A stretch of 64,000 nt of DNA, from the IMG/VR virus record IMGVR_UViG_3300020438_003889; one strand, given 5' to 3'. Position numbers and translations under genes: made by a program. The number at the start of each line of letters is the position of its first letter. The stretch's first letter is position 1. Below the pieces are notes generated by a model. The model was not told the DNA's origin. It saw nothing but the letters and a program-made list of their open reading frames with translations, and searched no databases. The stretch comes from an uncultured virus (IMG/VR IMGVR_UViG_3300020438_003889) (taxonomy: Duplodnaviria > Heunggongvirae > Uroviricota > Caudoviricetes). Below, piece after piece: positions 7,681-37,052 of the stretch.

Positions 7681-7691
7681 GGAGATAAACC

Positions 7692-8228: not shown

Positions 8229-8544
8229 ACATACCTGGGTCACTCTTACACAAGATTTTGTTAAGGAGTGGCCAGAGGTACTTGACGGTATTAATTTTTC
8301 AAACCTACCCATAGTATATGTTAAATGGATTAATATTCAGTTAAAGAGTTCTGTATCGTTGAGATACGATATTGAAAAAGAATTAAAAATTAAAGATTCT
8401 AAAAAAGTAGCAACTTTAATTACCGATGCACTAGATAAGCATTATCATCAAATAGATAAAGTTAATATTAAATTTGATATTCCTAAATTGAAAATAGATG
8501 TTCAAGCGAAAACATCTAGTATATTAAAAAAGTCTTTTACTTAA
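8197..8544 (+). CDS. hypothetical phage protein
   Basis: 115 aa; last + strand gene, its 3' end overlaps the convergent gene. Confidence 0.7.
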   Translation: MPKKVPKRKRKHTWVTLTQDFVKEWPEVLDGINFSNLPIVYVKWINIQLKSSVSLRYDIEKELKIKDSKKVATLITDALDKHYHQIDKVNIKFDIPKLKIDVQAKTSSILKKSFT

Positions 8545-9160
8545 AATTACAACTAATAGATACACGTTCAACATCTGATTTAAACGGATAAACATAATGT
8601 TTTAGTTCTGCTGGAAAGAACCAAATATCTTTGTCTTTTGGAACTTGGGTAAAATAAGTTTCAGAAAATTGAATGCTTTCACCATATGTCCATTGTATTC
8701 TTCCTGCACTAGGAATATTACTTTTCTTAGAATGCTCAGATTCAACATTTTCTATTTCAATTTCTTCCGGTACAGAAAGATATGCTACACAAGATATAAG
8801 TCCTGCATGAAAATGACTTGGATTCCATTCTCCTGCTTTCATGTAGTTTACCCAGATAGGTTCAACCATTGTTAAATCTTTTATTCTAGGTCTTCCAAAT
8901 TTTTTAATTCTTTTCTCTTTTTTTGCTTGTAACATATATGTTTGTGCAAGATCTAATAATTGTGCATAAACTAGTTCTTTCTCTTCTTCAGAAAAATCTA
9001 ATTTGTATTCTTCTGCTATGTTTCCTGCTAGTTGATGCCTAAAGTCATTGTCGTTGTTTCTGCTGTCATTGGATTTTGTTAATAGTGCAGTATGCAATTC
9101 ATCTGACATAACCCCCTTCATTAGTATTGGACCAAATGGTGTATGAAGTGTATTATCCAT
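8537..9160 (-). CDS. putative 2OG-Fe(II) oxygenase (TIGR02466/cyanophage-like)
   Basis: WVN...WNPSHFH (HxH), FFPAELKHYVYP, ERVSISCN jelly-roll motifs. Confidence 0.75.
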   Translation of the reverse strand: MDNTLHTPFGPILMKGVMSDELHTALLTKSNDSRNNDNDFRHQLAGNIAEEYKLDFSEEEKELVYAQLLDLAQTYMLQAKKEKRIKKFGRPRIKDLTMVEPIWVNYMKAGEWNPSHFHAGLISCVAYLSVPEEIEIENVESEHSKKSNIPSAGRIQWTYGESIQFSETYFTQVPKDKDIWFFPAELKHYVYPFKSDVERVSISCNFK

Positions 9161-9875
9161 AATGCTTGTCTAAATAATCAAACAATTTAATTGTAGGTTT
9201 CCATCCTATACTCATTAATGGTTTTATGTCTGCTTGGTTATCTAGTCTTTCGTGTTCGTCGCCAACTTTGTGTTCTACATTTTTCAAACCAACATGATTT
9301 ACAATGTCGATTAACGAATTTGTTTCTCCTGTGCCTACATCCATTACTCCTACTATATCGCTACCCATGACTTTTATTATTGCTCTGCATATATCATCGA
9401 CATGGATAAAATCTCTTGTATGATTAGTATTAACATAACGTACATCTCGATTTAATAATTTTGGTATAAACATAAACTCTCTTGCCTTAGGTCCGTATAC
9501 TGTTGTAAATCGTAACCCGACACTATTTTCAGGAGCAAGTTTTTCCATAGTCATTTTAGAATATGCATATGGGTTCCTGTCTGGTTCTGCGGCTGTGCTA
9601 GAACTTGCGTAAATTACCCTTGCGTTTTTATATTTTTCAAATATGCGTAAACTCCCTAAAACGTTATTTTGAAAATATGCGTTTGGATTTTTTATGCTAT
9701 CGCGTACCCCTGATCTTCCTGCTAGATGAATTACACAATCTATGTCTTCTGGTAAATCACAACTTTGGAGATCCTTTCCGTCCAGAACATCAATGGTGGT
9801 CACATCGTGGTCTTGTAATTTTGGTAGTAAGTTTGAACCAATAAAACCTTTATGACCTGTTAGCAGTATTCTCAT
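9153..9875 (-). CDS. NAD-dependent nucleotide-sugar epimerase/dehydratase
   Basis: TGHKGFIGS Rossmann motif, HLAG, ASSS, YAYSK (YxxxK), LRFTTVYG, RDFIHVDD. Confidence 0.9.
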   Translation of the reverse strand: MRILLTGHKGFIGSNLLPKLQDHDVTTIDVLDGKDLQSCDLPEDIDCVIHLAGRSGVRDSIKNPNAYFQNNVLGSLRIFEKYKNARVIYASSSTAAEPDRNPYAYSKMTMEKLAPENSVGLRFTTVYGPKAREFMFIPKLLNRDVRYVNTNHTRDFIHVDDICRAIIKVMGSDIVGVMDVGTGETNSLIDIVNHVGLKNVEHKVGDEHERLDNQADIKPLMSIGWKPTIKLFDYLDKHYG

Positions 9876-11347
9876 GACAGAACTCTTACTCCGTATTTCT
9901 GCTCAAATGCTTTACCATCTTTGACATCATTTACTATTGGTTGTCCTTTAATGTTCAAACTGGTGTTTAAAAGTATAGGGCAACCTGTCTTGTATTTCCA
10001 CTCTTTTAGCAGTTCGTAGAACCCCGGATTATCGCTTTTAGAGACGGTTTGCACACGACTTGTATTATCATGATGTATTATGGCAGGAAAGGCTTTACCA
10101 TGCGTACAAGGCGCTGTAAATTGCATATAAGGGGTGTTTTGAACACCTTTAGGCAGGGTAAAGTACTCATGCACATCTTCCTCTAATATTGCTGGAGCAA
10201 ACGGTCTAAACTTCTGTCTCTTCTTGATTCCGTTTACCAAATCTTTGATCTCTGGTCCTCTTGGATCTGCCAACAGTGATCTATTACCAAGTGCTCTAGG
10301 ACCAAACTCTGTTCGGCCACTTGCTACACCACACATTTTATTTTCTGTTAATTCTTTTATGATTGCATCTACTGGATACTCTCCCTCTATGTTGTATCCC
10401 AAGAACGGATTGTTCCAATCTAGGTGTTGTTTTTCTGCGGCGGCAATACAACCTAGTGAACTGCCTGCATCTCCTGGATTTGGTATTATCCATATGTTGT
10501 CAAACAATGCCATGTTGGCCAAAGAACTGTTGGCCGCACAGTTAAGTGCTACTCCGCCGGCATACACTAAATTTTTTGGTTTGCCCATGGGAGCATATTG
10601 CGATGCCTTGTGCCAAAGTCCTGCCAAGCATTCAACTGTTACTTCTTGGATACTTGCGGCAATGTCCATTACGTCTGCTTCAGGATGCCACTCTCCCAAT
10701 CCCCTGTGTAGGTTCTTCTTAAGTTTGAACGGTGACTGTTGCACAAAGTCTTCATAGATATCGTCTTTGTATTTGGGTTCACCATATGCGGCCATGCCCA
10801 TTAGGATGTATTCTTCTTCAGCAGGCTTTAGTCCACAACGTTGTGTGAATGCTGAATATAATATTCCCAAACTGTGAGGATACCGTATTGTTTCTTTTCT
10901 TTCAATTTTATTTCCTACTGCTGTAGATATTGATACTGTGTCCCATTCGCCTATTGCGTCCACTGTTAATATTACTGCTTCGTTGAATGGTGATGTAAAA
11001 TATCCTGCCGCGGCGTGTGAGTCATGATGGAGAACACATTCATCTATTTTTATTCCAAACATGGCACAATGTCTGTGAGGCATTTCTGTATAAGATAATG
11101 CAGGTCCGTACTGTCCTGCGTACAGTTGTCTGGTCTTTTTCAACAAAGGTTTTTCATAATATACCACTTTGTCAAAAGGACCATACGTCATTGCTTCATT
11201 GACTATTTCTTGATTCAGGTAGTGATCATTCTTCACTTTGGAGTAACGTTCTGCGTGTGCGGCCCATAATATATCTCCGCCACCTTGTATGTCTACCACT
11301 GCCATAGCGGCATCATGATTCATGCAATTTATTCCTAAAATTCTCAT
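9872..11347 (-). CDS. O-carbamoyltransferase (NodU/CmcH/TobZ family)
   Basis: HDAA, ERYS, HHDSHAA, DAIGE, GGVALNC, EFGPRALGNRS, FRPFAP, RVQTV, LLNTSLN. Confidence 0.92.
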   Translation of the reverse strand: MRILGINCMNHDAAMAVVDIQGGGDILWAAHAERYSKVKNDHYLNQEIVNEAMTYGPFDKVVYYEKPLLKKTRQLYAGQYGPALSYTEMPHRHCAMFGIKIDECVLHHDSHAAAGYFTSPFNEAVILTVDAIGEWDTVSISTAVGNKIERKETIRYPHSLGILYSAFTQRCGLKPAEEEYILMGMAAYGEPKYKDDIYEDFVQQSPFKLKKNLHRGLGEWHPEADVMDIAASIQEVTVECLAGLWHKASQYAPMGKPKNLVYAGGVALNCAANSSLANMALFDNIWIIPNPGDAGSSLGCIAAAEKQHLDWNNPFLGYNIEGEYPVDAIIKELTENKMCGVASGRTEFGPRALGNRSLLADPRGPEIKDLVNGIKKRQKFRPFAPAILEEDVHEYFTLPKGVQNTPYMQFTAPCTHGKAFPAIIHHDNTSRVQTVSKSDNPGFYELLKEWKYKTGCPILLNTSLNIKGQPIVNDVKDGKAFEQKYGVRVLS

Positions 11348-11730
11348 AACTGTTCCACGTACCTTTTTAATTCTTTGTCTTGGACATCATCGGGTATTTC
11401 ATTCTTATAAAATATTTTATAACTGTCACTGCCGTACTTGCCTATACCATATAAGTCAGATGCTTCTTTGCCATCCCATGTGAGATACTCTTTGCTCATT
11501 TGTCTTAATCTTTTTGCTCTCACACTCCACATACCCAAAGGCTTTAACATATTTTCTTGTGTTTTTAATCTGCCACGCAGGTATGCTTCAGAAGTTGGAT
11601 ATCTCTTGAACAACTTTGGCAATACTTCTTTTACTTGTTTTCTATATGTTTGATTCAGACAAATGACCCCAACCATGTGTTGCCATTTACTTTTGACTTG
11701 TTGCTGTACCATTAAATCTTCTCTCATCAT
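11344..11730 (-). CDS. minimal HhH-GPD DNA glycosylase, MBD4 catalytic-domain-like
   Basis: WQHMVGVICLNQT, LKPLG...RAKRL, HhH 'LYGIGKYGSDSY', C-terminal 'QDKEL' with candidate catalytic Asp. Confidence 0.8.
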   Translation of the reverse strand: MMREDLMVQQQVKSKWQHMVGVICLNQTYRKQVKEVLPKLFKRYPTSEAYLRGRLKTQENMLKPLGMWSVRAKRLRQMSKEYLTWDGKEASDLYGIGKYGSDSYKIFYKNEIPDDVQDKELKRYVEQL

Positions 11731-11912
11731 TTAATTTTTTCCCATAACCATTCGTGCCCATAATACATTATACTACCTGCAGGAATACTTGCTAATGATA
11801 ATCCAAATGTGTACCACAGATCACCACCAACAACAAAAGCATAACTCATAAACCAAACAAGACCTAGTAGTTGCCAACTAATGGTTTTTAATATTCTTTT
11901 TTTGTTCCACAT
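11727..11912 (-). CDS. small membrane protein (DUF2061-like)
   Basis: KRILKTISW...YYGHEWLW pattern with two hydrophobic helices. Confidence 0.65.
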   Translation of the reverse strand: MWNKKRILKTISWQLLGLVWFMSYAFVVGGDLWYTFGLSLASIPAGSIMYYGHEWLWEKIK

Positions 11913-11923
11913 TTATTTTGTTT

Positions 11924-12028
11924 CTATTTGTATATGAACGGATCTTTTTTCTTTAATTCTTTGATACGTTTTCTATATGCAATTTCTGATTTCAGTTTTG
12001 CAATTAGATTCTTTATCCAATTAATCAT
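11924..12028 (-). CDS. small basic peptide (34 aa, not in ORF track)
   Basis: GGAGAAC SD then MINWIKNLIAKLKSEIAYRKRIKELKKKDPFIYK*; fills the gap between neighbours. Confidence 0.65.
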   Translation of the reverse strand: MINWIKNLIAKLKSEIAYRKRIKELKKKDPFIYK

Positions 12029-12038
12029 TTGTTCTCCT

Positions 12039-12233
12039 TTATATTTTCTCAAAAGTTGCCATTACCAGTGGACCAAATGTGCTTATTGCCCACCCAGTTG
12101 CAATAAGGGTTACTACACCTATTGCTAACCATTTCATTTTAAAGTCATCAACAACCATTTTAATTCCTATAAGTTCGTTGCCTAGTACTCTTAATGAAAG
12201 TTCTAGTTTTCCGTCGTCGTTATCTTTCGCCAT
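12039..12233 (-). CDS. small membrane protein
   Basis: Likely start MAKDND at 12233 (GAAGG SD); C-terminal hydrophobic helix. Confidence 0.65.
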   Translation of the reverse strand: MAKDNDDGKLELSLRVLGNELIGIKMVVDDFKMKWLAIGVVTLIATGWAISTFGPLVMATFEKI

Positions 12234-12281
12234 TTTTTTTCCTTCTGTTGTGTTTAAAACATTGTACAATATAATGTTTCA

Positions 12282-13391
12282 TTATAATACCTTTCTTTTT
12301 GGTATTTTTGAATCAGCACTCGATACACATGAGTCAGTCATACAAGGCATCGGTGCACTGAATAATTTAAATCCTGTTTCTATATTACCTAAAGGTACGT
12401 CTCGACAACTGTAACTACGTTTGATACTACCATCAGGCTCTCTTATGATAATGCCTTGATACCCGGAGTTGCATAACCAACCTTTAAATTTATTAAAGTT
12501 AAATGCATTGAAACGTTCTGCTTGGTCCATGTACCATTTTTTACCATGTGAGTCTTTGAACTCTACTTGAAAATGTGCTGGCACACTTTTATCGTTTTGT
12601 TCTTCTGTGTCTTGTGGCATGGCAAATCTTGGTTTTGGTCTTTCAACATACTTACGTTTTGCTTCTGTATATGCTCTTTGTGGCATTCCGTTATATAACT
12701 TGTCTAACATTTCTTTAGAATAACCATCTACAACTTTACTTGCTGTAGGATCTGACTGTGGTTTAAGAGTTACATTGATCCCTTGCTCATGGAAAAATAA
12801 TGCATTGTCGTAATATTCATCAAATGCATCTGGAACCATAACCATATTAATTGTTACTTGTACATCATGCTCCTGGCATAATATTAACTTGTCTGCTAGG
12901 TCTTGCATTTTTTCTTTTGTGTTTACGTGTTCTGTGTGTAGACTTGCTGTAATTGATGCTCTGTGAAAAGGTTTTGCATACTCTACATATGTTTGAAACC
13001 ATTTAAAAGGTCGTGAACAGTTGCTTGTCATGTGTATGGAAGTATAATTTGTATTAGGAACATCATCAGCAAGATATTTTAGAATATCAAGATATCCTGG
13101 ATGAAAAGTAGGCTCTCCGCCAGACAAACTGAAATGAAAACTGTTGAATCCATTTTGTCTTGCTTGTTTTTTAATTTCATCGATGGTTGATAAACATAGT
13201 GCAGTCGGTCTGTGGTCTTTTTTATCTGACCTTGCATACGGCCAACAGTAAGAACATCTGTAATTACAAAATCTACCTAGCAACCAACTCACAGTAAACA
13301 AGTCTCTGTATAATAACGTTCGCTGTCCAACAGATACAAGATCGTTGTAAGGAATTTTTGTAAAGTCGTAATTGCTCCATTTAAGATCCAT
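12282..13391 (-). CDS. radical SAM protein (subfamily A, C-terminal Cys/Twitch-like domain)
   Basis: CNYRCSYC, SGGEPT, TSN; C-terminal FKGWLC...C...C..DSC. Confidence 0.9.
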   Translation of the reverse strand: MDLKWSNYDFTKIPYNDLVSVGQRTLLYRDLFTVSWLLGRFCNYRCSYCWPYARSDKKDHRPTALCLSTIDEIKKQARQNGFNSFHFSLSGGEPTFHPGYLDILKYLADDVPNTNYTSIHMTSNCSRPFKWFQTYVEYAKPFHRASITASLHTEHVNTKEKMQDLADKLILCQEHDVQVTINMVMVPDAFDEYYDNALFFHEQGINVTLKPQSDPTASKVVDGYSKEMLDKLYNGMPQRAYTEAKRKYVERPKPRFAMPQDTEEQNDKSVPAHFQVEFKDSHGKKWYMDQAERFNAFNFNKFKGWLCNSGYQGIIIREPDGSIKRSYSCRDVPLGNIETGFKLFSAPMPCMTDSCVSSADSKIPKRKVL

Positions 13392-14557
13392 TATAACACC
13401 AATCCTTTATATTTCTCATCTATGTATTTTGTTTGTCTTAGATCCATGGGATCTGTACATCTAAACTTCTCACACACTACAGGTTTTGTAGGTAATTGTA
13501 CAGAGTCGTCCATTGTATAAATGTTTGCTAATGGACCACCTTGGAAACAGTTTCCTATAAAGATATCTCCGTTGGGTGCAACTTTTAACAATGTAACTCC
13601 TGCATAGCAAGTCCAACCTTTGAAACTTGTTTTGTATTCGTAGTTTAAACTGTTATAGTGATACGACTCTTCTTTTATAGATCCGTCTTCGCCCTCTACA
13701 AAACCTAATAACCATTTTCTTTCCGCGGCAACTCCTTCGTACATTTTTTGCAATACATCTCTGTCGTCTTCACTGTACCAACGTTCTTCTCTTTTGAATA
13801 TCTCTGTTACGTCACTTGCATTGGACCAGTCCGGAGCAACTTTAGTTTCTGTGTCTACATCTTTAACACTGGGTTTGGTTTTCCACTTGTAATTTCCTTT
13901 GTCTGTTTTAACTTTGCTTTCTGCAACGAACATATCTTTTTGAGGACGTATTACTCTATGTTCAATTTTTTGTATTCCGAACTCTTTGAAATGTGCCGTC
14001 ATGTCTGCAATCTCTTTATTGAATCCAGGCAGTACCATAAAACGTGCAATAAATTGTTTGGGTTGCATCTGTCCTAGATCCCAGCCTTCTTTGTCTTTAG
14101 GAATATTATCGTTCCACTCTCTTCTGAACGTTTCCAACTGTAATGCTTTTTCTGTAAAATCTTCTATCTTGGGTGTAATGTGTTCAAAGTGTAAACTGTA
14201 TGTGATGTTGTCTACTAATTCATACATCTTGTACATATATTCAATTGTTCTACTGCCGTTTGTACACACAGATATTTGATATTTTTTGTCCTGCAAGTAT
14301 TCTAGTAATTGCATGAAGTCAGGATTGAGTGTTGGCTCGCCACCTGTCAAACTCCAGTGAATATTTGTTCCGTACCTTGCAACAATTTTATCTACAAAGA
14401 TTTTCATCTTTTCAAAAGGCACGTGCTTAGAATAGTTGTCGTGTATAAAGTCAGCACAATAAGAACAAGCAAAGTTACATCTCTTACCGATATACCAATC
14501 GATCATCATTGTTTTAAGTTTGTTGTGCTTGTATTTTGTTGCTACTAGTTTAGACAT
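13391..14557 (-). CDS. radical SAM protein (subfamily A)
   Basis: CNFACSYC, TGGEPT, TNGS; FKGWTC...GNC...CEKFRC; likely start MSKL at 14557. Confidence 0.9.
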   Translation of the reverse strand: MSKLVATKYKHNKLKTMMIDWYIGKRCNFACSYCADFIHDNYSKHVPFEKMKIFVDKIVARYGTNIHWSLTGGEPTLNPDFMQLLEYLQDKKYQISVCTNGSRTIEYMYKMYELVDNITYSLHFEHITPKIEDFTEKALQLETFRREWNDNIPKDKEGWDLGQMQPKQFIARFMVLPGFNKEIADMTAHFKEFGIQKIEHRVIRPQKDMFVAESKVKTDKGNYKWKTKPSVKDVDTETKVAPDWSNASDVTEIFKREERWYSEDDRDVLQKMYEGVAAERKWLLGFVEGEDGSIKEESYHYNSLNYEYKTSFKGWTCYAGVTLLKVAPNGDIFIGNCFQGGPLANIYTMDDSVQLPTKPVVCEKFRCTDPMDLRQTKYIDEKYKGLVL

Positions 14558-15659
14558 TTTCTTTCCTGTATTTTGGTATATTGATGTCTCCTTCTTTGAA
14601 TAACCTATCAAATTTTTTCTCTTTGTTCCAATATTTTTTTTGATTACAGTTGTTTGCACAAATCTGTGGATCACAAGTGTTCCATTTAGTCATAAGCATA
14701 TCCCACCACGGGTCTTCCATTATGTCACGCAAAGTACGTGAATCTAAATCATTATTAAATCCTTTAAAGAACGGTACTGTATCAGATTGATGATTTTCTT
14801 TTGTACTGATCAAATACTCGTCAATGACTTGCCATGAATGAAAATAACAACACGGCAAAAGTTTAAATTCGTTTGTTATGTACATCATGCTTTTTTCCAT
14901 TACCTTACAAGCAATCTCTTTTACTTCACCGGTAGCCGCATTGTATCTAATTGTTTCTTTTTTAGTAACTGCTGGTGGTTGTGGTACTTTGTCTCCCATG
15001 CCTTCTAGTCTTGCATATGAATTGTCTTTTGGATCATAATGTCTCACAGATGGTTCAGATATGAACGTCATGAACCCCATGTCTCTGGCCATACGTTCTG
15101 CTTCATCTACTTGATGTTCATTGTGCTTGAATATGATGTACTTCCATTCTGCTATTCCACCTGCGTCAATATATGTTTGTGCATTTTCCATTATTTTGTC
15201 AAAGTCTGTTCTTATCCTGTACAGAGGATTGGTATCTTTTAAACCATCAACACTGAAAGTGACCATCATTTTTCTTCCGTCTTTGACACCACCAGATGCC
15301 TTGCTTATTTCACCTAATTGTTTCCATACTGCTGTTGACCTCAAAGAACCGTTGGTGTCTATTGTAACTGCTTTGAATCCTGCATCACTGCAAAGTTTGA
15401 ATATTTCTACTGCTTCAGGATTCATCATGGGATCTCCGCCCACGCCTGCCATGTATAGAACCACTTTGGATGGATCTGGAATTTGTTTAATAAAACTTTC
15501 CATTTGTTTTAGTGTTAAATGCCCTTTTCTAAATCCTGGTCTTTCTTGGTCTGTTCCTAGCAACTGTCTGATACACAAAGGACATCTTGCGTTGCAGTGA
15601 CTGGATAATTCTATTTCAAACTTTTTAATGTTTTCTAATTTTTGCCAACGATTAGACAT
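14550..15659 (-). CDS. radical SAM protein (subfamily B, C-terminal SPASM/Twitch)
   Basis: CNARCPLC, GGDP, TNGS, FSVDGL, FKHNEHQ; C-terminal C...PCC...CANNC; GGAGG SD. Confidence 0.9.
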   Translation of the reverse strand: MSNRWQKLENIKKFEIELSSHCNARCPLCIRQLLGTDQERPGFRKGHLTLKQMESFIKQIPDPSKVVLYMAGVGGDPMMNPEAVEIFKLCSDAGFKAVTIDTNGSLRSTAVWKQLGEISKASGGVKDGRKMMVTFSVDGLKDTNPLYRIRTDFDKIMENAQTYIDAGGIAEWKYIIFKHNEHQVDEAERMARDMGFMTFISEPSVRHYDPKDNSYARLEGMGDKVPQPPAVTKKETIRYNAATGEVKEIACKVMEKSMMYITNEFKLLPCCYFHSWQVIDEYLISTKENHQSDTVPFFKGFNNDLDSRTLRDIMEDPWWDMLMTKWNTCDPQICANNCNQKKYWNKEKKFDRLFKEGDINIPKYRKENV

Positions 15660-25909: not shown

Positions 25910-25971
25910 ATAATTTCCAAGTTATTATAATCTAATCCTAGCGGATTTAAGATTCTTTTACTCAAGTGTAT

Positions 25972-26959: not shown

Positions 26960-27623
26960 CAAATTGTTCCTTTAGCCATTCAAAATTGTTTATCATATGT
27001 AGTTTAACATGATCCCCTCTATGCTTTATTCCGTATTCTCTTCCTGCTTTTGCACCTGCAATAGCATAATCTCCAAACTCGCCATTGTTAACTGTACACC
27101 ATACATCTAATCTATCATCTGTTTCTTTATTTTCTTGTCTTTCAATTACTTTACTTGCAAGTTTAGTACATTCTCTAAAAGCAGATTTCCATGTGTTGTA
27201 TGGATCAGTATTAAATGCGGTAATGTTTGATACCTGTGCCATTGATCTAAATCGAGGACTAATGCTTGTTGTCATATCTGGTCTGTTTACATCTAACTCT
27301 AATGTTAATCTTCTCGGAAATAACTTAACTCCACCGTATCCATATGTTAAATCGTTTATTGGATTTTTGCATCTCCACACATGAACAATGTCTTCATCGT
27401 AGGGTTTGCAAGTGTATGAGAAATCAAAATTATCTAAAATAATTGCATCTGCATCAACTATCCAAAACATTTTTGTCCAACACATAGTTGCACCTTTTAT
27501 GTGTGCTTGGTGTAGTCCTTTTACTCCGTCTACTCTTTTTGCTGTTGGAAATCTCTTTAATAGATTTTGCCAGTTCTGTTCTTTTTGTTCTTCTTTATAT
27601 CCTATAAAAACTATATCATACAT
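26946..27623 (-). CDS. GT-A fold glycosyltransferase
   Basis: FWIVDAD (DxD), KRVDGVKG..QAH, YGYGGVK, WKSAFRE; paralogous to 33502-34428. Confidence 0.7.
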   Translation of the reverse strand: MYDIVFIGYKEEQKEQNWQNLLKRFPTAKRVDGVKGLHQAHIKGATMCWTKMFWIVDADAIILDNFDFSYTCKPYDEDIVHVWRCKNPINDLTYGYGGVKLFPRRLTLELDVNRPDMTTSISPRFRSMAQVSNITAFNTDPYNTWKSAFRECTKLASKVIERQENKETDDRLDVWCTVNNGEFGDYAIAGAKAGREYGIKHRGDHVKLHMINNFEWLKEQFDATV

Positions 27624-28773: not shown

Positions 28774-30420
28774 TTAAAAAGTCTCCATAATACTATCATG
28801 CAAAGATTTTTCTGCATTTTTTCCTCTTTGCATTAGATTTTTAAAATTTGATTCACAGATGTGTTTGGTTTCTTCAAACAATACCTTTTGTTTTTCTTCT
28901 GAATGTTTTACCCATTTTACTGCTTCACTGCATACCTCGTCTACTCTCCTCCAATTGCCTGTTACATTGTCGAAATTCTCATTGAACATTGTTGGAAATG
29001 TTTTGTAACCTTGTGTATGTAATTTTTCGTATAATCCTTTTTGTCCAGCAACTAAAAAAGGACGTTTATAAAACATTGGCTTAAATGTTTTTTCACTGAC
29101 AAATAAATCCTGATTATCTTCTGCTGTTGTTTCTGTTATAACGTGTACCATTGATTTTAAATACTTTGCAGAATCTACATCTTTATTTGGATTATCTCCG
29201 GAATGTATCTTATGCTTATCATATTTTATAATCATCGGCAACTGTTTTTCAACCTTTTTCTTCCATAGTTTTGCTAGTATACCTTCTTTCTTTTGTTTGG
29301 GAGGCGCTGGTAATTCTAGTTGCTGTCGTTGTATTTCTAGTGCTTCTTCCTTGGTTCTTGCTTTAAAAATTTCTCCTGTTGACTTTCTTTTCCAATACCA
29401 AATCATTTGATGGTGCTCTTCTTCTTTGTAATTTGAATTGAAACCATAAGATCTAAAATAAGCATTTATGTTGTGTTGAAAATCATGGTTATTTTGTACT
29501 ACATCTTTTATTCCCTTAGGCCATAAAATATCATATATTTCTTGCCTGGCTTCTGGACGTTGAGAACATAGATAGGAGTGGGCAAAGTTCATAGTGTTGT
29601 ACACATAGTTTGATCTCCTATCCAATAGATTTTCATACTTTGGATCATTTAATTCTTCTATGTGTCCTGCTCCTGTGTATTCTGAATCGTCAGCGGGTGC
29701 CGGTGCTATAAATTCTGGTTCTTGTGCTAGTTCCATGGACTTAAACAATTCGTAATGATCTTCATAATGTCTTTTTGCTGTTTTGTACCCGTACTGATAA
29801 TCTGGATACACAGAGTCCGGACTTAGGTGAGTTAAGAAACCAAACCGTTTGAAATCAAACAAACGAGAAACAGTTAAAAACCTATGCCAAGCAGGTCTCC
29901 TGTTTAAACATATAAATTTTACGGTTGGTTGGTATCTTTTATCTTTAGCATTTCTCTCTACTTTTTTATAGTTACACTCGTGCCATTGCCATTCCATTTT
30001 ATTTGCATATATGTGAGTGTATTCTTTTCCGTTGAAATCTTCCAACGAGCAACTAACGTAAACAAAGTTTTTTTGTTCTAACCAGTCATGCTTTATTTTT
30101 AATGTTGAATATATTTGTTGAAACTCAGCATCACTCCAGTTTTCCATCCACCCAAAAAGTAAAATTTTGCAACGATTTGTTTTTATAGCATCGTGTGTTT
30201 CTTGTGGTATTGTGTAATGTTTTAAGTTTTGTGCTACCAATCTATGTCTTAAGTCTAATAAAACTACAAAACGTTCTTGTGGAATGTCATACACAGGAGC
30301 AAAATGTTTATTGAATTGGAATTGCTGTACATCAGCATTTATTTCAGAGTAATGCTCTGGTAACTCGCTCCATCCATCTTTGAGATAGTTGTCTTTATTC
30401 TTTACGTAATAATAAATCAT
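28774..30420 (-). CDS. putative glycosyltransferase (GT10-like C-terminal motif)
   Basis: FICLNRRP..HR and HVITET...VSEKTFKP..KRPF..G resemble the nucleotide-sugar-binding motif of GT10-like enzymes. Confidence 0.45.
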   Translation of the reverse strand: MIYYYVKNKDNYLKDGWSELPEHYSEINADVQQFQFNKHFAPVYDIPQERFVVLLDLRHRLVAQNLKHYTIPQETHDAIKTNRCKILLFGWMENWSDAEFQQIYSTLKIKHDWLEQKNFVYVSCSLEDFNGKEYTHIYANKMEWQWHECNYKKVERNAKDKRYQPTVKFICLNRRPAWHRFLTVSRLFDFKRFGFLTHLSPDSVYPDYQYGYKTAKRHYEDHYELFKSMELAQEPEFIAPAPADDSEYTGAGHIEELNDPKYENLLDRRSNYVYNTMNFAHSYLCSQRPEARQEIYDILWPKGIKDVVQNNHDFQHNINAYFRSYGFNSNYKEEEHHQMIWYWKRKSTGEIFKARTKEEALEIQRQQLELPAPPKQKKEGILAKLWKKKVEKQLPMIIKYDKHKIHSGDNPNKDVDSAKYLKSMVHVITETTAEDNQDLFVSEKTFKPMFYKRPFLVAGQKGLYEKLHTQGYKTFPTMFNENFDNVTGNWRRVDEVCSEAVKWVKHSEEKQKVLFEETKHICESNFKNLMQRGKNAEKSLHDSIMETF

Positions 30421-31201
30421 TTACTCTTATGTAATCGTATACTTCGTTTGCAAACTTATCTTGCCCGGATTTTGCAACATGATGATTTAATGCCCATTCT
30501 GTATTTGGATCTCTTTTAAATCTTTCAAAATAGCACCCATCTCCTGTTCCACCTTTATAAATTCTTTTTAGATCAAGTGAATTGTACAATCCTATTGTTT
30601 TTGCTTTTAATTTTATAACAGGTAATTCAAACTCTTGAAGCATATTAATGAACAAATATTTTACACCCATTTTTTCTAAAAAACTTTGCAAAGTAAAATT
30701 TGATAATAACAACCTATACTGAATTGCTCTCCAACTGCCCCATTCTGTTCTAAGCAATTCTCTATACATAGATTCGTGCCTAGGTTTCATTAGTTGAATA
30801 TTTTTTGATTTTTTTGCACCGAGAAGTCCTGGAATAAACATATAATATCCACCCCAACGTTGCTCTCCGGGTTCATCGGATTTTAGAAATAATCTGTCTG
30901 GTCCTGTCCACCCTATTACAACAAATAATCTTTCTCTTGCTTCTAAACTTAATTTGCTAACATATCCTATTGTTTCTTCTGTGATGTAATCATTACTAGA
31001 TCCAGGAACAGCATAATTAACAATTTTTTTTATATCTAGTTTTACACCAACTTGATTTGCCCAAGAGTCATTGTAACATTGTTGTCCTATCTCTCGTGGC
31101 GTAGAATCTTTTCTAGGTAATCCTTGGTCGTTGTTTTCCCATGAAGGTAGTTCCACAGCGGCAGTATGACTGCAACCATGTATGAACATATGATCTACCA
31201 T
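30395..31201 (-). CDS. SGNH/GDSL hydrolase or acyltransferase-like protein
   Basis: HGCSHT (block I Ser), NYAVPGSSN, GWT..DR, C-terminal NHH; likely start MVDH at 31201. Confidence 0.65.
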   Translation of the reverse strand: MVDHMFIHGCSHTAAVELPSWENNDQGLPRKDSTPREIGQQCYNDSWANQVGVKLDIKKIVNYAVPGSSNDYITEETIGYVSKLSLEARERLFVVIGWTGPDRLFLKSDEPGEQRWGGYYMFIPGLLGAKKSKNIQLMKPRHESMYRELLRTEWGSWRAIQYRLLLSNFTLQSFLEKMGVKYLFINMLQEFELPVIKLKAKTIGLYNSLDLKRIYKGGTGDGCYFERFKRDPNTEWALNHHVAKSGQDKFANEVYDYIRVNDLLLRKE

Positions 31202-32157
31202 ACTCGTTCCTTTGTTAACAACACATCGGTTGTACAAATACATCTATCTTTGATGCAAACTGTTTGCTGTGTTGGCCATTTTATATTCTCTGGTTCGTTG
31301 ATGTGTCCTATTGTTCCGCCCTGGAAACAGTTTGCAAGATACATCTCTCCTGTGTATTGTATAAAAAGACTTTCTAGTCCCATACTACATTTCCAACCTT
31401 TAAAATTTGTTTTTCCTGCATTAATTAATTCTTGTTCTGCACCGTTTGAATTTATAACTTCTCCATCTTCGAAGGTAATATTTGATCTACTATCTATTGT
31501 GTGTTTTGGTACAGGCATCCATTCTGCGTCTTGTGTAGTAGTATTATCAAACCACTTCAACTGTTCTTCTGTATAATCGCAACCTGTGTTGTCACCGGTT
31601 ATCCAATCGTAAACTTTTACTGCTTCTACTGTAATGTGTTTGTATGGTTTACAACTTTCTAAAAATTTCATACCAACGTCCCAATACCTACTATCCATCA
31701 TTACTCTAATGTTAACAGGTGTAAGGTCCGCGGCCGCAAGTGCTTTTTCTAAAAAATCTTTGTCTTCAAAACTTGGATGATAACTTGCAGAAACATATGC
31801 TAAAAACGGGGCCAGTGTTTTCATGTATCTTGGAGTTCTTGCAAGGTTAGTTGTTATTCCAACTTTATTGCCAGTATCATATATCATCTTGACAAAGTCT
31901 AATAAGAAAGGACTTAAAGTTGGTTCGCCGCCAGATAATGCTACTTGTAATTTACTATGCTTTTTTAAAAGCAACTGCCAAAATCTTTTTGCATTTTCCC
32001 AATCGTAATGATGATTTTTTCCTGTGTGTAAATTTTTTGGACAATACGAACAAGCATTTGTACAAATATTATTAATGATCCATGTGACAACCATAAGGTC
32101 ATCAGTACGCCTCTGTATCTTTACAACAGAGTTTTTATTATCATTTAAACTTTTCAT
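31195..32157 (-). CDS. radical SAM protein (subfamily A)
   Basis: CTNACSYC, SGGEPT, TTN; FKGWKC...ANC...CIKDRCIC; likely start MKSL at 32157. Confidence 0.9.
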   Translation of the reverse strand: MKSLNDNKNSVVKIQRRTDDLMVVTWIINNICTNACSYCPKNLHTGKNHHYDWENAKRFWQLLLKKHSKLQVALSGGEPTLSPFLLDFVKMIYDTGNKVGITTNLARTPRYMKTLAPFLAYVSASYHPSFEDKDFLEKALAAADLTPVNIRVMMDSRYWDVGMKFLESCKPYKHITVEAVKVYDWITGDNTGCDYTEEQLKWFDNTTTQDAEWMPVPKHTIDSRSNITFEDGEVINSNGAEQELINAGKTNFKGWKCSMGLESLFIQYTGEMYLANCFQGGTIGHINEPENIKWPTQQTVCIKDRCICTTDVLLTKERVW

Positions 32158-33469
32158 ATGCATCTTCGTAAATTCCTGGGTATTTTTTTCTGACATCTTC
32201 TAATTCTGGTATAGTTTTAAATATACTTTCTTTTCTAATCTTGTCAAGTTTGGCGTGTTTAACTAGAAATAGTTTAGCAAACTCAGGATTATGAGGCAAA
32301 GACAACCCGTGCAAAATCTCTTTTAATTTAGGTGTTGGATCATACTCGTATTTTTCTTTGTAGTCTTCAATCCAAAATTTATACTTTTCTAAGATTTTCT
32401 TTTTAAACTCGTCGCTTAAAATTGATATGTGTAAATCTTCAGGCCAATGCACAAAGTTTAAAAACCAGTTGTTGTGTTTTACTCTCCATGTGTTACAATT
32501 TTGATTTGCATGATTGTTATGTATTAATCCAAGTTTTATAAAATGATCTATAATTTCAGGCAGTCTAAATACATTCAACGCACCTACTGTGATACCAGGC
32601 TGTATAAAAATATCATTGTTTAAACCAATTATTGTTTCAATATTTTTTAAAGTTTTAGGCCATATGGTTCCTGAACGTACAAGTTCTGCTCTGTCTCCGT
32701 ACTCATCTAAACTTGGCCAAATTTCTATTTTTCCCGGATCCCATAATTTCCAGTAATCAACTACATTTTTTCCTTTCCAGTCCAGTCTAGCCATGTTGGT
32801 ATTGTACATTATTCTTACATCAAAACGTTTATGTTTTTTTAGTAAATCTAAAATGTACCAATGGTCATCCATCATCATTGGTTCACCACCTGCAAAATAA
32901 ATTCTTTCAACGTGCTCTATTTGATCTTCTAAAAAAGTTAATTTAGATTGTCCTTCGATATCGTTTACAACATTTAATCCTTTTTTATTTTCTGCCATGT
33001 AACGTTTTTTGCCCCAGATTTTAATTGCATCTGGTACCCAAGATGAACTGTGTTTAGGACCACAACTTCTACATTTAAGATTACAAATATTGCTGAATCT
33101 CATATCCCAATATTTTAAACGCATTTCAGGTACAGTTCCATCTGGTAAAGTTATATGCTCTACCTCTTTCATTACTTTTTTATAAGTCTTATTGTTGTGT
33201 TGACGATTTGAAACCATGCCTTGATCTTCCATGTTCCAACACTTTTTACAAATCTTAGGACGTTCACCTGAAAGCATTTCTCTTCTCAGTGCTTTTTGTT
33301 TTGGACTATTCCATATTTCTTCAATACTATTTGTGCTTAAATCTCCTAGATCGTAATTATAAGGAGATGTAAGACAGCATGGTATTACCTTATTGTGAGG
33401 TTCAAACTGTAAATGGACCCAAGGAATAATACAAAAACTTTTTGATTTTTTTAACTCGTCGTACTTCAT
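32141..33469 (-). CDS. radical SAM protein (subfamily C)
   Basis: FCIIPW...PCC...CKKC, then CNLKCRSC, AGGEP. Confidence 0.9.
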   Translation of the reverse strand: MKYDELKKSKSFCIIPWVHLQFEPHNKVIPCCLTSPYNYDLGDLSTNSIEEIWNSPKQKALRREMLSGERPKICKKCWNMEDQGMVSNRQHNNKTYKKVMKEVEHITLPDGTVPEMRLKYWDMRFSNICNLKCRSCGPKHSSSWVPDAIKIWGKKRYMAENKKGLNVVNDIEGQSKLTFLEDQIEHVERIYFAGGEPMMMDDHWYILDLLKKHKRFDVRIMYNTNMARLDWKGKNVVDYWKLWDPGKIEIWPSLDEYGDRAELVRSGTIWPKTLKNIETIIGLNNDIFIQPGITVGALNVFRLPEIIDHFIKLGLIHNNHANQNCNTWRVKHNNWFLNFVHWPEDLHISILSDEFKKKILEKYKFWIEDYKEKYEYDPTPKLKEILHGLSLPHNPEFAKLFLVKHAKLDKIRKESIFKTIPELEDVRKKYPGIYEDAYEKFK

Positions 33470-33501
33470 TACTCATATTTAAGTAATTTTTAGTTGTACT
33501 G

Positions 33502-34428
33502 TTATGTTTTCTTGGCTAAAAAGTTCTCTACACCTCTATCAGGATTTTTGTAGACTTGTTTGAAGAAGGTGCTTTGTGATGGTGTAAGGTGTTCAACACC
33601 AATTGGTATTAATACTTCGTTGATTAATATATCTCCTAAACGTTTGATTTCGTCAATTACGGTGTTTTCAGTGAATTTTGCTTCTTGCTCTTTCCACATA
33701 TCATTTAGGTATTCAAAGTCTCTTGTATGAACAATGTCCCAATCTGTACACATTGTTAGATATGTGCCTTGTCTTGCTCCATATATTGCCCATAATCCGT
33801 TGTCAGCGTCTGCACCTACCATCTGCCATATGTACATTCTGTTTAGATTTTTCCAATGATTCTTTTTAAAATCGTCTAAGTTAACTCTTGCACCTCTGTC
33901 TAATGCCATTTTTACACCTTCTCTAAATCCTGCTCTCCAGGCCTGTTGAGGTGTGTGATTGTTATACACATCACTATATGTTTGATTCATTTGCAAGTAT
34001 TTTAAGTCCCAACAAAAATCTATTTGTGAAGCAACATCATCAGGATCTGCATTTTCATGAGTCTTCATATCTAATACATACTGTCTTGGCCAACATTTTA
34101 GTCCACCATTCCCGTACACCAATCCATTTACTATGTTGTAACCACACCAACTAACAACACTAGTTGTTAAATCAACCACGTCCATATCAAATTCTATTTC
34201 AACATCTAACCACTTTGGATTAATAATGTTGTCGCCGTCTACTGTTGTAAATCTTTCTGTTTCGGCCGCTGTTGCACAGGCTTTGTGTGCCGCATCTGAT
34301 CCCTTTACTCCATGTACTCTTTTTACCCAAGGTATTTTATTACAGATGTCTGCATAATTTTTTTCAGCATTTGGCTCATCATAACTCAAATAAAATACAT
34401 CATGATCTCTAACTCTAAATTTATCCAT
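33502..34428 (-). CDS. GT-A fold glycosyltransferase
   Basis: FTTVDGD (DxD), KRVHGVKG..AAH, YGNGGLK, AWRAGFRE; paralogous to 26946-27623. Confidence 0.7.
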   Translation of the reverse strand: MDKFRVRDHDVFYLSYDEPNAEKNYADICNKIPWVKRVHGVKGSDAAHKACATAAETERFTTVDGDNIINPKWLDVEIEFDMDVVDLTTSVVSWCGYNIVNGLVYGNGGLKCWPRQYVLDMKTHENADPDDVASQIDFCWDLKYLQMNQTYSDVYNNHTPQQAWRAGFREGVKMALDRGARVNLDDFKKNHWKNLNRMYIWQMVGADADNGLWAIYGARQGTYLTMCTDWDIVHTRDFEYLNDMWKEQEAKFTENTVIDEIKRLGDILINEVLIPIGVEHLTPSQSTFFKQVYKNPDRGVENFLAKKT

Positions 34429-34999
34429 TTTGTCTCACGTGATTATAATCGTTATATAAATTTCTACAGTACACACTGATATTTAATTTCGCTGATTGTT
34501 TGTCAAAAGTTTTTATTTCGTATTTGCCTTCGTCCACTAGTTTGTTAAGATCAATACTCAATGTATCATGTAATATGTTTGGATTATTATTAGCAGTTAC
34601 ATAAAACAATTGATGCAGATTTTTATTATTATCTGCTAATTCTTTTATAATGTCAACAGTATCGCCTTGTATCGTTGCTGTCCATGTTCCGTTACTGATG
34701 TTTTGTATTAAATTTATTCCATTTTGTTCTGTTGTAGTGGTTGGTAGTTGAAAGACAAAGTTAGATGCTGGAGGTTCTATAACAAAATTTTTTGTTAAAT
34801 TTGCGTCAGATCTAATTTCAACCAATACATATTTTTTAGTAGTGTCATCTAATACAACTTTAAATTGATTCATTTGTTTGAATCCATCTTTGATTGCTGT
34901 TGCTGTTGTTCCTTCAATTTCAATGCAGGTTCCTTCCTTGTTAGGCCCTAACCCCATTGGATCACCTGTTTCTTGATTAAACTTTAAGTACTGTTTCAT
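34421..34999 (-). CDS. hypothetical protein
   Basis: 192 aa ORF coupled to neighbours. Confidence 0.7.
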   Translation of the reverse strand: MKQYLKFNQETGDPMGLGPNKEGTCIEIEGTTATAIKDGFKQMNQFKVVLDDTTKKYVLVEIRSDANLTKNFVIEPPASNFVFQLPTTTTEQNGINLIQNISNGTWTATIQGDTVDIIKELADNNKNLHQLFYVTANNNPNILHDTLSIDLNKLVDEGKYEIKTFDKQSAKLNISVYCRNLYNDYNHVRQNG

Positions 35000-35822
35000 T
35001 TGCTTTCTCTAAATTGTTTACTAATTCATCTGTTAAAAATTGATCTTCAACGTAGTGTATTATTCCGTGTTGTTTAAAGTTTCCAATAAAAAAGTTGTTA
35101 TCACTAAAATATAAAGTTACTGCTCCACTTGAATTTACGTAATTGTGTTTCCACCCTTGTTGCTGTGGTTTTAAATGGACTACATTTACAAAAGAATCGC
35201 TATCTGTAATTGATTCGTAATTGTCTAATATCTTAGATGCAATAGCGGCGCTGACGTCCATACTACACCATTTTTGTTTTTTCTTTGGTGTATATTTTGT
35301 ATAAAAAGTTTCCCAATTTTCTACAATCATTTGTTGCAGTCTATAAAACCTAGATGCTTCATCTGACTTTTCAAAATAATGAAATGCATTGTATAAATTA
35401 GGCAAGTTATTCTCAATAAATGTTTTACGGTATGTAACAGCATCACTCTTCTCATTCCTGTATGTACGTGCATCTGAGACGTAGTAAACCATATAATTTG
35501 CTAGGTATGTCCACCAACTGTCTAAGTTTTCAGTTACTAATACATCGGCATCCATTACTATGGTTTTTAAATAAGGTGAAATGTTATATGCATGACAACG
35601 TTGTTCAGAATTTAATACACTTTGAGACACTGGTACTTTGTGAGGGACAATAACGTTGTCAAACCCTGCACGAATTCTATCACATAATTCGTTTTCAGTG
35701 ACTAGTGTTACATGAGCATCTTTATTAAACAACTTAATTGACAAAGACAATGCGTATGCTTGTCTAGTGTAATTACATTTGTTACTGTTATTTGCGTAAA
35801 TTAAATATCCTTGTTCTATCAT
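34977..35822 (-). CDS. GT-A (GT8-like) glycosyltransferase
   Basis: ISPY.KTIVMDAD (DxD); paralogous to 35819-36673. Confidence 0.65.
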   Translation of the reverse strand: MIEQGYLIYANNSNKCNYTRQAYALSLSIKLFNKDAHVTLVTENELCDRIRAGFDNVIVPHKVPVSQSVLNSEQRCHAYNISPYLKTIVMDADVLVTENLDSWWTYLANYMVYYVSDARTYRNEKSDAVTYRKTFIENNLPNLYNAFHYFEKSDEASRFYRLQQMIVENWETFYTKYTPKKKQKWCSMDVSAAIASKILDNYESITDSDSFVNVVHLKPQQQGWKHNYVNSSGAVTLYFSDNNFFIGNFKQHGIIHYVEDQFLTDELVNNLEKANETVLKV

Positions 35823-36673
35823 ATTCCTTTACTTTCAATAACTGTTTGTAATCCTAATTTGTTCATTACATGAACGTTTAAATCTTTGACTGTGGTTGCT
35901 GTTGATTTTTTTTGATCTTGAGGTACTGTTACCAAAAACGTAAATTTATTATCGTTGAAATCGATTATCTGATCTCTGTCGTATATGTAATAATGTGTTC
36001 CTGGCAACTTTGCAGGCCATTCTTTGTTGTCCTCAAATCCGTTCATTATCCATATGGCAATAGTAAAAGCAAAATCATTTCTATAATTCTTTGATGCTAT
36101 TTGATATATCCATCTGTAATATGCCCAATTGTCTCTAACGTGTTGCACAGTATTAAAATATGTTTTCATTTTTTCACATTTTTTAAAATAAAATACTGTT
36201 GCCCAATACATTTCCATTGACGTATCACTGACATACTTTATTTCCCATACCTTTCCATGAGGATTTAGATATGTTGCTTCTTTCCATATCATAAAATCAT
36301 TGTTTACTTTAAAACAGTTTAATAATTGATTGTTGGCAACTATATAATCTGTGTCCATTACTAGTGTTTCATCGTAAGGTGTTAGATCATACACATCTGA
36401 TCTGTTAAGATTGTTCCACTCAAGTTTTTTTACAGGACCAACCCCGTCCCTGAACGATTTACGTTGTCCTGAATTTACTTTTGGGATTGAAATAATTTTA
36501 TCAAACAGTTCAACATATGTTGAATACTGTTTATACAAATGATCTGATGAATTTGTTACCAGCGAAACAGGTAAGTCTAAATGTTTTTTAATCTGTTGTG
36601 TGCAAAAAATAGCCTGTTTGATATAATCAACTTGCTCATTGTTGTTTGCAAATAAAACTACGCCTTTGGTCAT
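35819..36673 (-). CDS. GT-A (GT8-like) glycosyltransferase
   Basis: LTPYDETLVMDTD (DxD), RND, HVMNK. Confidence 0.65.
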   Translation of the reverse strand: MTKGVVLFANNNEQVDYIKQAIFCTQQIKKHLDLPVSLVTNSSDHLYKQYSTYVELFDKIISIPKVNSGQRKSFRDGVGPVKKLEWNNLNRSDVYDLTPYDETLVMDTDYIVANNQLLNCFKVNNDFMIWKEATYLNPHGKVWEIKYVSDTSMEMYWATVFYFKKCEKMKTYFNTVQHVRDNWAYYRWIYQIASKNYRNDFAFTIAIWIMNGFEDNKEWPAKLPGTHYYIYDRDQIIDFNDNKFTFLVTVPQDQKKSTATTVKDLNVHVMNKLGLQTVIESKGI

Positions 36674-37017
36674 GCATCTAAAACGTCTTTAATTTCTCTT
36701 TTTTTAATACTCTGCATCTGTGCATAATAATCATTGACGTTTTTTGAATACAAGTCCATGACATCATCTACAAACTTTTGAAAGTCGTCTATCTGTACAG
36801 GATTGTCGTTGTCATCTATTATTGTAACACTCTTGGTTTGTCCTTTTTGCAAAAGTAGATTAATAAACGTAATAAATTCTTTTGTTATATTAAACTTTGT
36901 TCCACCGGCATAGTATACATTTTGATCTAGAAACTTATTCTTTAGGATTCGTTTTTGGTTATTGTAAGTAACCATATAATTCGAATATTCTAGTGCCTCT
37001 TCTAATCTTTTATCCAT
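36670..37017 (-). CDS. hypothetical protein, first gene of the modification island
   Basis: Likely start MDKRL at 37017, just downstream of the promoter. Confidence 0.7.
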   Translation of the reverse strand: MDKRLEEALEYSNYMVTYNNQKRILKNKFLDQNVYYAGGTKFNITKEFITFINLLLQKGQTKSVTIIDDNDNPVQIDDFQKFVDDVMDLYSKNVNDYYAQMQSIKKREIKDVLDA

Positions 37018-37023
37018 AGCACT

Positions 37024-37052
37024 AGTATATAGTAGTCGCACTTCTAGGTCAA
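37024..37052 (-). promoter_or_regulatory. sigma70-type promoter heading the glycosyltransferase/radical SAM block
   Basis: Minus strand TTGACC (37052-37047) - 17 nt - TATACT (37029-37024). Confidence 0.65.

Follow-up and report, generated by a model that had tools for sequence, protein, structure and literature searches.

The window analysed here is a stretch of 64,000 nucleotides from an uncultured virus of the class Caudoviricetes (IMG/VR record IMGVR_UViG_3300020438_003889), and our subject is a block of genes at 8537-37041, referred to below as the island, in which twelve radical S-adenosylmethionine (rSAM) enzymes are interleaved with enzymes that handle sugars and other small groups. 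All of the island lies on the minus strand, as do all island coordinates given here. It consists of 28 intact open reading frames (ORFs) of at least 120 aa, most of which overlap by a few bases in the ORF listing, and it has only two gaps, which together hold four small minus-strand ORFs. A first-pass annotation of the window had described about 33 co-oriented, overlapping genes; the orientation and the packing are as it described them, while the count comes to around 32.

Twelve radical SAM enzymes and the genes between them

The CxxxCxxC motif is present in all twelve rSAM genes. Nine of them pass the gathering cut-off of PF04055 (29.5 bits), and the three that fall below it, namely rA2 (28.1 bits), rA5 (27.9 bits) and rC3 (20.6 bits), are backed by other profiles: rA2 and rA5 reach 348 and 411 bits on NF033640 (N_Twi_rSAM, "twitch domain-containing radical SAM protein"; cut-off 170 bits), and rC3 matches phrog_21308 (E 1e-16). 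The dozen counted at first pass thus stands. The enzymes split into groups A, B and C with six, three and three members, a split that is recovered by hidden Markov models built from the group alignments. Group A comprises rA1 (15652-16962; 316 bits on NF033640), rA2 (16962-18431), rA3 (18419-19627; 286 bits), which overlaps the aminotransferase-like gene discussed below, rA4 (22151-23398; 326 bits), rA5 (23398-24819), which is the most conserved core gene of the cassettes described later, and rA6 (32141-33469; 346 bits). These matches (286-411 bits) extend over the full model, whereas the other six rSAMs score 21-65 bits on it; the NF033640 family itself has no assigned reaction.

BtrN, a radical SAM dehydrogenase of the twitch type from the butirosin pathway, acts on an aminocyclitol. 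In all six group A proteins, an accessory Fe-S domain lies N-terminal to the rSAM core, and this domain aligns to residues ~164-240 of BtrN (PDB 4M7S/4M7T; E 1.2e-5), with its four invariant cysteines (C16, C34, C99 and C102) in register with the cluster cysteines of BtrN. The twitch-type likeness to BtrN that had been proposed is thus borne out for half of the twelve enzymes. The two differ in that the twitch domain is C-terminal in BtrN but N-terminal in group A, and, as regards the rSAM core, SkfB and an archaeal lipid synthase are at least as close to group A as BtrN is. Pfam SPASM matches occur in five of the six proteins, but the four conserved cysteines form the twitch pattern rather than the full seven-cysteine SPASM pattern. 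Since the six proteins are only 25-30% identical among themselves, while each has closer orthologues in other loci (for instance, 59, 56 and 51% in the viral locus L011, and 75 and 85% in L002), they appear to be old paralogues rather than recent copies, and the same seems to hold for all three groups.

Group B consists of rB1 (12282-13391; PF04055 52.6 bits), a core member with a C-terminal cysteine cluster, rB2 (13391-14557; 55.8 bits) and rB3 (31195-32196; 37.8 bits). In a profile search of the PDB, this group came nearest to viperin-like enzymes and MoaA (E 1e-12 to 2e-10), but its top score on the NCBIfam viperin model is 49 bits against a cut-off of 180. Group C consists of rC1 (14550-15662; PF04055 37.9 bits; phrog_21308 E 5e-22), rC2 (20451-21587; 37.5 bits), in which a cysteine-rich N-terminal extension places the CxxxCxxC motif at residue 167, and the core gene rC3 (24812-25909). 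The group matches phrog_21308 and is weakly similar to NifB, MoaA and cytosylglucuronate decarboxylase.

Several of the interleaved enzymes named in the first-pass annotation are supported by Pfam and PHROG matches. These are a 2-oxoglutarate (2OG)-Fe(II) oxygenase (8537-9160; PF13759, E 3.4e-16; phrog_81), which is the last gene of the block and converges on plus-strand genes; a short NAD-dependent sugar epimerase/dehydratase of 240 aa (9153-9875; PF01370, E 4e-27; phrog_540, E 1e-52); a NodU/CmcH-type carbamoyltransferase (9872-11347), earlier called NodU/TobZ, with PF02543 and PF16861 both above their cut-offs (E 3e-41 and 8e-53) and phrog_1601 at E 1e-90; and a UDP-glucose/NDP-sugar 6-dehydrogenase (27616-28773; PF03721 and PF00984; phrog_9148, E 7e-82). 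The last of these scores 140.8 on TIGR03026 against a cut-off of 189.8, with matches to its N-terminal and central domains and none listed to a C-terminal domain. The proposed methyltransferase (26183-26962), a core gene, likewise has the class I SAM methyltransferase fold in its AlphaFold2 model (mean predicted local distance difference test score, pLDDT, 91.5), for which Foldseek returns NodS, CouO and RebM (E 7e-8).

The gene first read as a pyridoxal phosphate (PLP) enzyme (19624-20490) would encode a short fold-type-I aminotransferase-like protein. Its Atlas structural neighbours are named as aminotransferases (TM 0.86-0.91), its translation contains an SLSK motif, and it resembles short viral aminotransferases. 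It adjoins a group A rSAM gene in seven of its eight occurrences across 109 loci, although a high base rate of such adjacency is to be expected, given how many group A genes these loci contain. The call of a short-chain dehydrogenase/reductase (SDR; 21577-22158) holds in part, as this short protein matches phrog_3142 (E 1.5e-7), while its PF00106 match (E 2e-4) is below the cut-off. The SGNH protein was not confirmed, the sole match of the candidate (30395-31243) being to the Pfam family DUF6071 (PF19547, E 2e-18).

Four of the four or five glycosyltransferases proposed at first pass were recovered, two with a GT-A fold (gtX1, 26946-27635, and its paralogue gtX2, 33502-34428, with which it was aligned) and two that are GT8-like, or glycogenin-like (gtY1 and gtY2, together at 34977-36673). 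The fifth, a 548-aa protein (28774-30420) with no Pfam match, offers only a weak GT10 lead (Atlas score 0.79, sub-threshold). The AlphaFold2 model of gtX1 (pLDDT 91.2) gives Foldseek matches to RmlT, WrtF and ppGalNAc-T at E 4e-5 with a probability of 1.0, and VIA finds neighbours at Z ~10, including the virus-encoded transferases A64R of PBCV-1 (Z 9.2) and R655 of mimivirus (Z 8.8), with which gtX1 shares the fold alone. The structure entry of A64R is titled as glycosylating the major capsid protein. Because cytidylyltransferases match the gtX1 fold equally well, the inferred transferase chemistry of gtX1 and gtX2 leans on a conserved DxD and an N-terminal strand motif. PDB profile searches with the gtX and methyltransferase alignments returned nothing significant. 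For the GT8-like pair, single sequences gave no Pfam match, but the family profile is similar to glycogenin over ~100 residues (E 1.5e-6), with an invariant DxD (D91 and D93).

What the island seems to lack is equally informative for the discussion below. No membrane segment is predicted in any of its enzymes. Searches of its 28 proteins with Pfam, PHROGs and NCBIfam found no domain of the kind that recognises the leader of ribosomally synthesised and post-translationally modified peptides (RiPPs), that is, no RiPP recognition element (RRE) or PqqD domain, and no leader protease, exporter or transporter. Pfam recognised no flippase, polymerase or lipid-carrier transferase, and Pfam and NCBIfam recognised neither a resistance gene or scaffold-forming enzyme (cyclase, synthase) nor a DNA transglycosylase, kinase or base-modifying enzyme. 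For nine island proteins that lacked an assignment, Pfam up to E 10 gave nothing usable; profiles made from related loci then resolved several such genes, while a 192-aa protein (34421-34999) has no family match in Pfam.

The island at the end of the virion genes

The minus-strand gene run is unbroken, with structural genes from 63885 to 37086 followed by the 28 island ORFs from 37041 to 8537, so the island is the distal end of a same-strand run of virion genes. Immediately upstream of it, at 37086-45503 on the same strand, are fibre-like virion proteins rich in Ser and Thr (300 aa, at 37086-37988, and 529, 472 and 506 aa) with PHROG tail-fibre and virion-protein matches, together with a 156-aa ORF and a 733-aa protein with a Hint domain. 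Further upstream, at 46245-62590 (minus strand), lie a giant virion protein of 4292 aa (phrog_10938) and a baseplate wedge protein of 1154 aa (phrog_10646, E 1e-278), and Pfam also identifies a gp25-like baseplate wedge protein among the structural genes. The proximity to tail genes noted at first pass is therefore real. Ser and Thr make up 21-28% of the adjacent fibre proteins, compared with 8-14% of the island enzymes. The 1154-aa wedge protein is 30-35% identical to its counterparts in Sinorhizobium phage Phosso, Agrobacterium phage Atu_ph07, Salicola phage SCTP-2 and the PBECO4 group, and to judge from these genes, the window represents part of the genome of a jumbo myophage, not yet cultured, of the Atu_ph07/PBECO4 kind.

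The exact motif TATAAATA, the T4 late-promoter motif, occurs only twice in the 64 kb against 7.9 copies expected (43980-43987 and 62607-62614, minus strand). Each copy is located 11-17 nt ahead of the start of a structural gene, as T4 late promoters are, and the island contains none, which suggests that the island may be transcribed by read-through from upstream promoters. A scan of 7500-27400 for sigma-70 promoters and terminators found fewer sites than in shuffled sequences (57 vs 76 and 7 vs 10, respectively). Contigs from RNA libraries of three studies cover 28, 27, 12 and 11 of the 30 bins over 18501-38500, although contigs cannot show transcription and DNA carry-over is possible. Near-identical island DNA (at least 98% of sampled words) was present in 14 DNA runs labelled as seawater, marine or viral metagenomes, some of which may be the source sample, and no match to the island was returned by megablast among 50,697 phage records.

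Two observations on neighbouring genes may be added. In the 733-aa protein among the fibre genes (40346-42547, minus strand), a Hint or homing-endonuclease-associated Hint domain begins at residue 446 (PF05203, E 1e-14) and may be either an intein or a module by which a structural protein cleaves itself. On the strand opposite the island, at 3597-5938 (plus strand), a MoxR-type AAA ATPase is followed by a DUF2201 metallopeptidase/VWA-like protein (phrog_1297 and phrog_1314).

Related cassettes in phages and bacteria

Relatives of the twitch rSAMs are encoded in at least 675 stretches of IMG/VR, as counted by a pattern scan, and rA5 alone has 2426 relatives at E<=1e-10. Conservation was counted in the 80 viral loci that were kept, each of at most 21 kb, which together hold 426 rSAM genes of the three groups (median 5 and maximum 13 per locus). 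The core across them consists of rA5 (in 80 loci), the methyltransferase (67), rC3 (65), rB1 (57), gtX1 (50) and the dehydrogenase (25). The genes are thus not scattered in relatives but form cassettes that are syntenic in many viral contigs. For instance, 21577-34428 of the window is syntenic with L002, while 9872-20490 has its closest relatives in L011, a distribution by which the island reads as a mosaic. A homologue of fib300 is found in seven of the viral loci, and all seven also contain the GT8 pair. Relatives of u123, a conserved 123-aa protein whose gene adjoins the fibre genes (36670-37041), also occur in 7 of the 80 loci. A 128-aa HhH-GPD (endonuclease III-like) fragment lies within the island as well (11344-11730; PF00730, E 1.6e-7), and it was found in none of the 80 loci.

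Two of the small ORFs are also conserved. The first, of 74 aa (25972-26196), lies between the methyltransferase and rC3 and has homologues in 24 loci. Its mean column identity (68% over 21 sequences) is above that of its enzyme neighbours, and it is conserved over its full length as a folded protein would be, with an invariant stretch near YGDLPS..GPG and no cysteine. It has no Pfam family, as tried with all 21 aligned members, and no significant PDB profile match, and sequence searches did not detect it in the T4-like or Bdellovibrionales cassettes described below. The second (11924-12052) is a basic ORF of no known family that lacks cysteine and ends in DPFIYK. Its relatives, which end in DPFIY(K/R), come from three viral loci (L007, L011 and L026) that all also contain the carbamoyltransferase, and in L007 and L026, the relative is directly upstream of a gtX gene. 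It was not detected in the Bdellovibrionales loci by sequence search.

Among isolated phages, only Ralstonia phage RsoM2USA has a gtX gene. Its genes 347-354 (MG752970) repeat the window's order of methyltransferase, gtX1, twitch rSAM, gtX2, gtY1, gtY2 and u123 at 21-43% identity (41% between gtX1 and gene 348, and 43% between gtX2 and gene 350), and this mini cassette shares the window's position beside fibres, a giant protein and a baseplate wedge. It has, however, a single rSAM gene in place of twelve, and all of its genes are annotated as hypothetical.

Among the whole records searched, the largest related set is found in a T4-like viral record, G004 (151 kb, 90% complete), which has 16 PF04055 matches in the whole record, compared with 13, 8 and 6 in three others. 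In G004, a block of around 40 kb with the same core (loci L111 and L035, bases 24000-64828) lies between RNase H and gp59/gp32. It also contains two Trp-halogenase homologues, two B12-binding rSAMs, an AMP-binding enzyme, PhyH and TauD dioxygenases, a nitroreductase and an aminotransferase, and the 7-deazaguanine genes for GTP cyclohydrolase I and QueC are nearby. No gtX or gtY homologue was detected in this block.

Cassettes of this kind have been noted before. In pelagimyophages and cyanomyophages, Zaragoza-Solas et al. (2020; PMC7029224) described a "host recognition cluster" on the fibre side, a block of variable content next to the fibres and to a giant baseplate protein, and reported that it holds rSAM cassettes as well as genes for GT8 and UDP-glucose dehydrogenase. 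The gene order of the window, with its GT8, UDP-glucose dehydrogenase and rSAM genes, fits the description given in the passages of that article drawn on here. Those clusters belong to T4-like phages of 132-164 kb, in contrast to the jumbo phage of the window, and the same passages assign no chemistry to them. Nishimura et al. (2017; PMC5332604) had already found 12 rSAM genes in a T4-like environmental viral genome, which resembles the window in this count alone, and in the part of their article used here, the rSAMs are discussed only as clients of phage Fe-S assembly genes. With its "far beyond", the first-pass annotation thus overstated how unusual a dozen such enzymes are. A cyanophage paper of 2025 (PMC12801897), in the portion that concerns us, lists a single rSAM as an "antibiotic synthesis gene". 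In the literature searched, we found no paper assigning a reaction or a target to these cassettes.

The same core is also found in bacteria. Orthologues of rA5 with 52-57% identity occur in 24 loci from metagenome-assembled genomes (MAGs) of Bdellovibrionales/Pseudobdellovibrionaceae, on contigs of up to 936 kb. These loci contain rA5 (22 of 24), rC3 (20), rB1 (19), the methyltransferase (13), gtX (9), the carbamoyltransferase (5), the SDR (5) and PLP-like genes (3), with a median of five rSAMs per locus. Since the flanking genes (rpoD, dnaG, yqeY, a tadA-like deaminase and mscL) are housekeeping genes, the cassette appears to be chromosomal in these bacteria. The association with fibres is therefore not universal, given this location and that of the core in G004. 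In a BLOSUM62 neighbour-joining tree without support values, rooted on the window paralogues, the sequences from Bdellovibrionales group into a single clade that lies within the viral ones, and this does not establish the direction of transfer. Five other MAG loci (L082, L105, L106, L107 and L110, filed under Gammaproteobacteria, Chloroflexota, Acidimicrobiaceae, Verrucomicrobiales and Crocinitomicaceae) have 8-13 rSAM genes; they intermix with viral contigs in the tree, two being almost identical to viral loci, and are probably phage DNA binned into MAGs.

What the pathway may make

The weight of the evidence favours carbohydrate chemistry, because genes for soluble enzymes that would make and transfer sugars and handle methyl, carbamoyl and amino groups are interleaved with twitch rSAMs and are unaccompanied by RiPP hallmarks. 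The proximity of group B to nucleotide-acting viperin-like enzymes and MoaA also supports a substrate of this kind. We would give about an even chance to the proposal that the island encodes a modular, soluble cytoplasmic pathway that builds a sugar or short glycan and edits it by radical chemistry. In such a pathway, the dehydrogenase would yield a uronic acid and the epimerase would invert a centre, and from the C-H bonds of the resulting nucleotide sugar the twitch-type rSAMs could abstract hydrogen, as BtrN does, giving keto or radical intermediates. The aminotransferase-like and SDR-like neighbours might then convert these intermediates to amino, epimeric or deoxy positions, while the methyltransferase, carbamoyltransferase and 2OG oxygenase would attach further groups. 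Finally, the two GT-A-fold and the two GT8-like transferases would transfer the product to an acceptor that the infected cell produces, and direct transfer in the cytoplasm fits better than a lipid-carrier pathway because the island has no membrane segment, RRE, protease or transporter. Virus-encoded soluble transferases and methyltransferases follow the same logic in giant viruses, although we know of no rSAM enzymes in the glycosylation machinery of PBCV-1 or mimivirus.

The best candidates for the acceptor would be the adjacent Ser/Thr-rich fibre proteins. In support of this link, the jumbo-phage clade keeps the block beside such fibres, and RsoM2USA has it in the same position. Nevertheless, this is the least certain step of the scheme, and we regard it as possible but doubtful. 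The first-pass annotation had likewise suggested a phage pathway that builds and tailors an unusual glycan; the enzyme inventory and its soluble, interleaved arrangement agree with that suggestion, while none of the results shows whether virion, DNA or host surface is the target.

Several points weigh against the sugar-editing pathway and its link to the fibres. Its product, acceptor and reaction are all deduced from genes, and SPASM and twitch rSAMs include many peptide maturases, to which the island enzymes have weak NCBIfam matches. The modelled fold of gtX1 fits a glycosyltransferase or a nucleotidyltransferase alike and cannot separate the two, and the two conserved small ORFs have no assigned role. 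In G004, the core rSAM trio lies away from fibres and without detectable homologues of the glycosyltransferases of the window, and the accompanying enzymes are more typical of peptide or small-molecule tailoring. In Bdellovibrionales, moreover, gtX is present in only 9 of the 24 loci, and in the four loci scanned with Pfam no virion genes were found beside the cassette, which adjoins rpoD and dnaG instead.

Some of these points would be better explained if the rSAMs acted directly on protein or peptide, either by maturing the fibres through epimerisation, cross-links or C-methylation or by working on a small scaffold peptide, whose final form would be glycosylated and methylated. The logic of such a scheme would resemble that of mycofactocin and proteusin pathways, the five SPASM matches and the many weak matches to maturases point in this direction, the 74-aa and DPFIYK ORFs could be scaffolds, and the halogenase homologues, B12-binding rSAMs, nitroreductase, AMP-binding enzyme and dioxygenases that accompany the core in G004 would be at home in such a pathway. 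However, every peptide-maturase score is far below its NCBIfam cut-off, the accessory domain with its four conserved cysteines is a twitch domain that falls short of a full SPASM domain, and the 74-aa ORF is free of cysteine, conserved like a folded protein and absent from the T4-like and Bdellovibrionales cassettes. The absence of an RRE or PqqD domain, a leader protease and an exporter among the 28 island proteins tells in the same direction. We consider direct action on protein or peptide unlikely. A shade less probable again is a free small molecule, which might be aminoglycoside-like, nucleoside-like or a cofactor and be used in infection or predation. The closest solved relatives of the rSAMs (BtrN, viperin-like enzymes, MoaA and cytosylglucuronate decarboxylase) do take small molecules or nucleotides as substrates, the PLP-like and SDR-like genes beside the rSAMs recall the logic of 2-deoxystreptamine biosynthesis, and the Bdellovibrionales cassette is isolated, no structural genes having been found next to it in the four scanned loci. 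Yet no exporter, resistance gene, cyclase or synthase was recognised in the island, and the jumbo-phage clade keeps the position of the block with transferases and fibre genes.

The remaining alternatives concern other acceptors. Remodelling of the host surface, either lipopolysaccharide or capsule, during infection has been argued for the GT8 and UDP-glucose dehydrogenase genes of pelagimyophage clusters in the passages of PMC7029224 drawn on here. In the island, nevertheless, no membrane segment, flippase, polymerase or lipid-carrier transferase was found, and the block is located at the end of the structural gene run rather than among early genes, which makes this explanation decidedly improbable. 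The phage DNA could also carry bases hypermodified with an edited sugar, an idea to which the nucleotide-acting relatives of group B, the HhH-GPD fragment within the block and the 7-deazaguanine genes of G004 lend some colour. This explanation ranks low on account of the HhH-GPD gene, which none of the 80 viral loci contains; nor did the island yield a recognisable DNA transglycosylase, kinase or base-modifying enzyme. In bacteria, moreover, the cassette is chromosomal, and the block of the window sits with virion genes rather than with replication genes. We regard it as highly improbable.

Returning to the sugar-editing pathway and to the cassettes as a whole, the question of their product matters beyond this phage. 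Radical SAM enzymes are oxygen-sensitive and costly, and cassettes of them are nevertheless very common in phages of surface water. Identification of the product would give a chemistry to a large uncharacterised family of enzymes, and it would tell whether phages put edited sugars on their receptor-binding fibres, which bears on host range and on the evolution of phage-host recognition in the sea. The core shared with Bdellovibrionales offers a second, cellular setting in which this can be tested. It is even conceivable, although we hold it to be rather improbable, that phages and predatory Bdellovibrionales share an rSAM toolkit with which they edit their own prey-recognition structures after synthesis, by C-H chemistry on fibre-attached glycans or on the fibre polypeptides themselves and with a distinct reaction for each paralogue. 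If that were true, it would be the first radical SAM maturation of virion proteins and would provide a reaction class for the N-terminal-twitch family.

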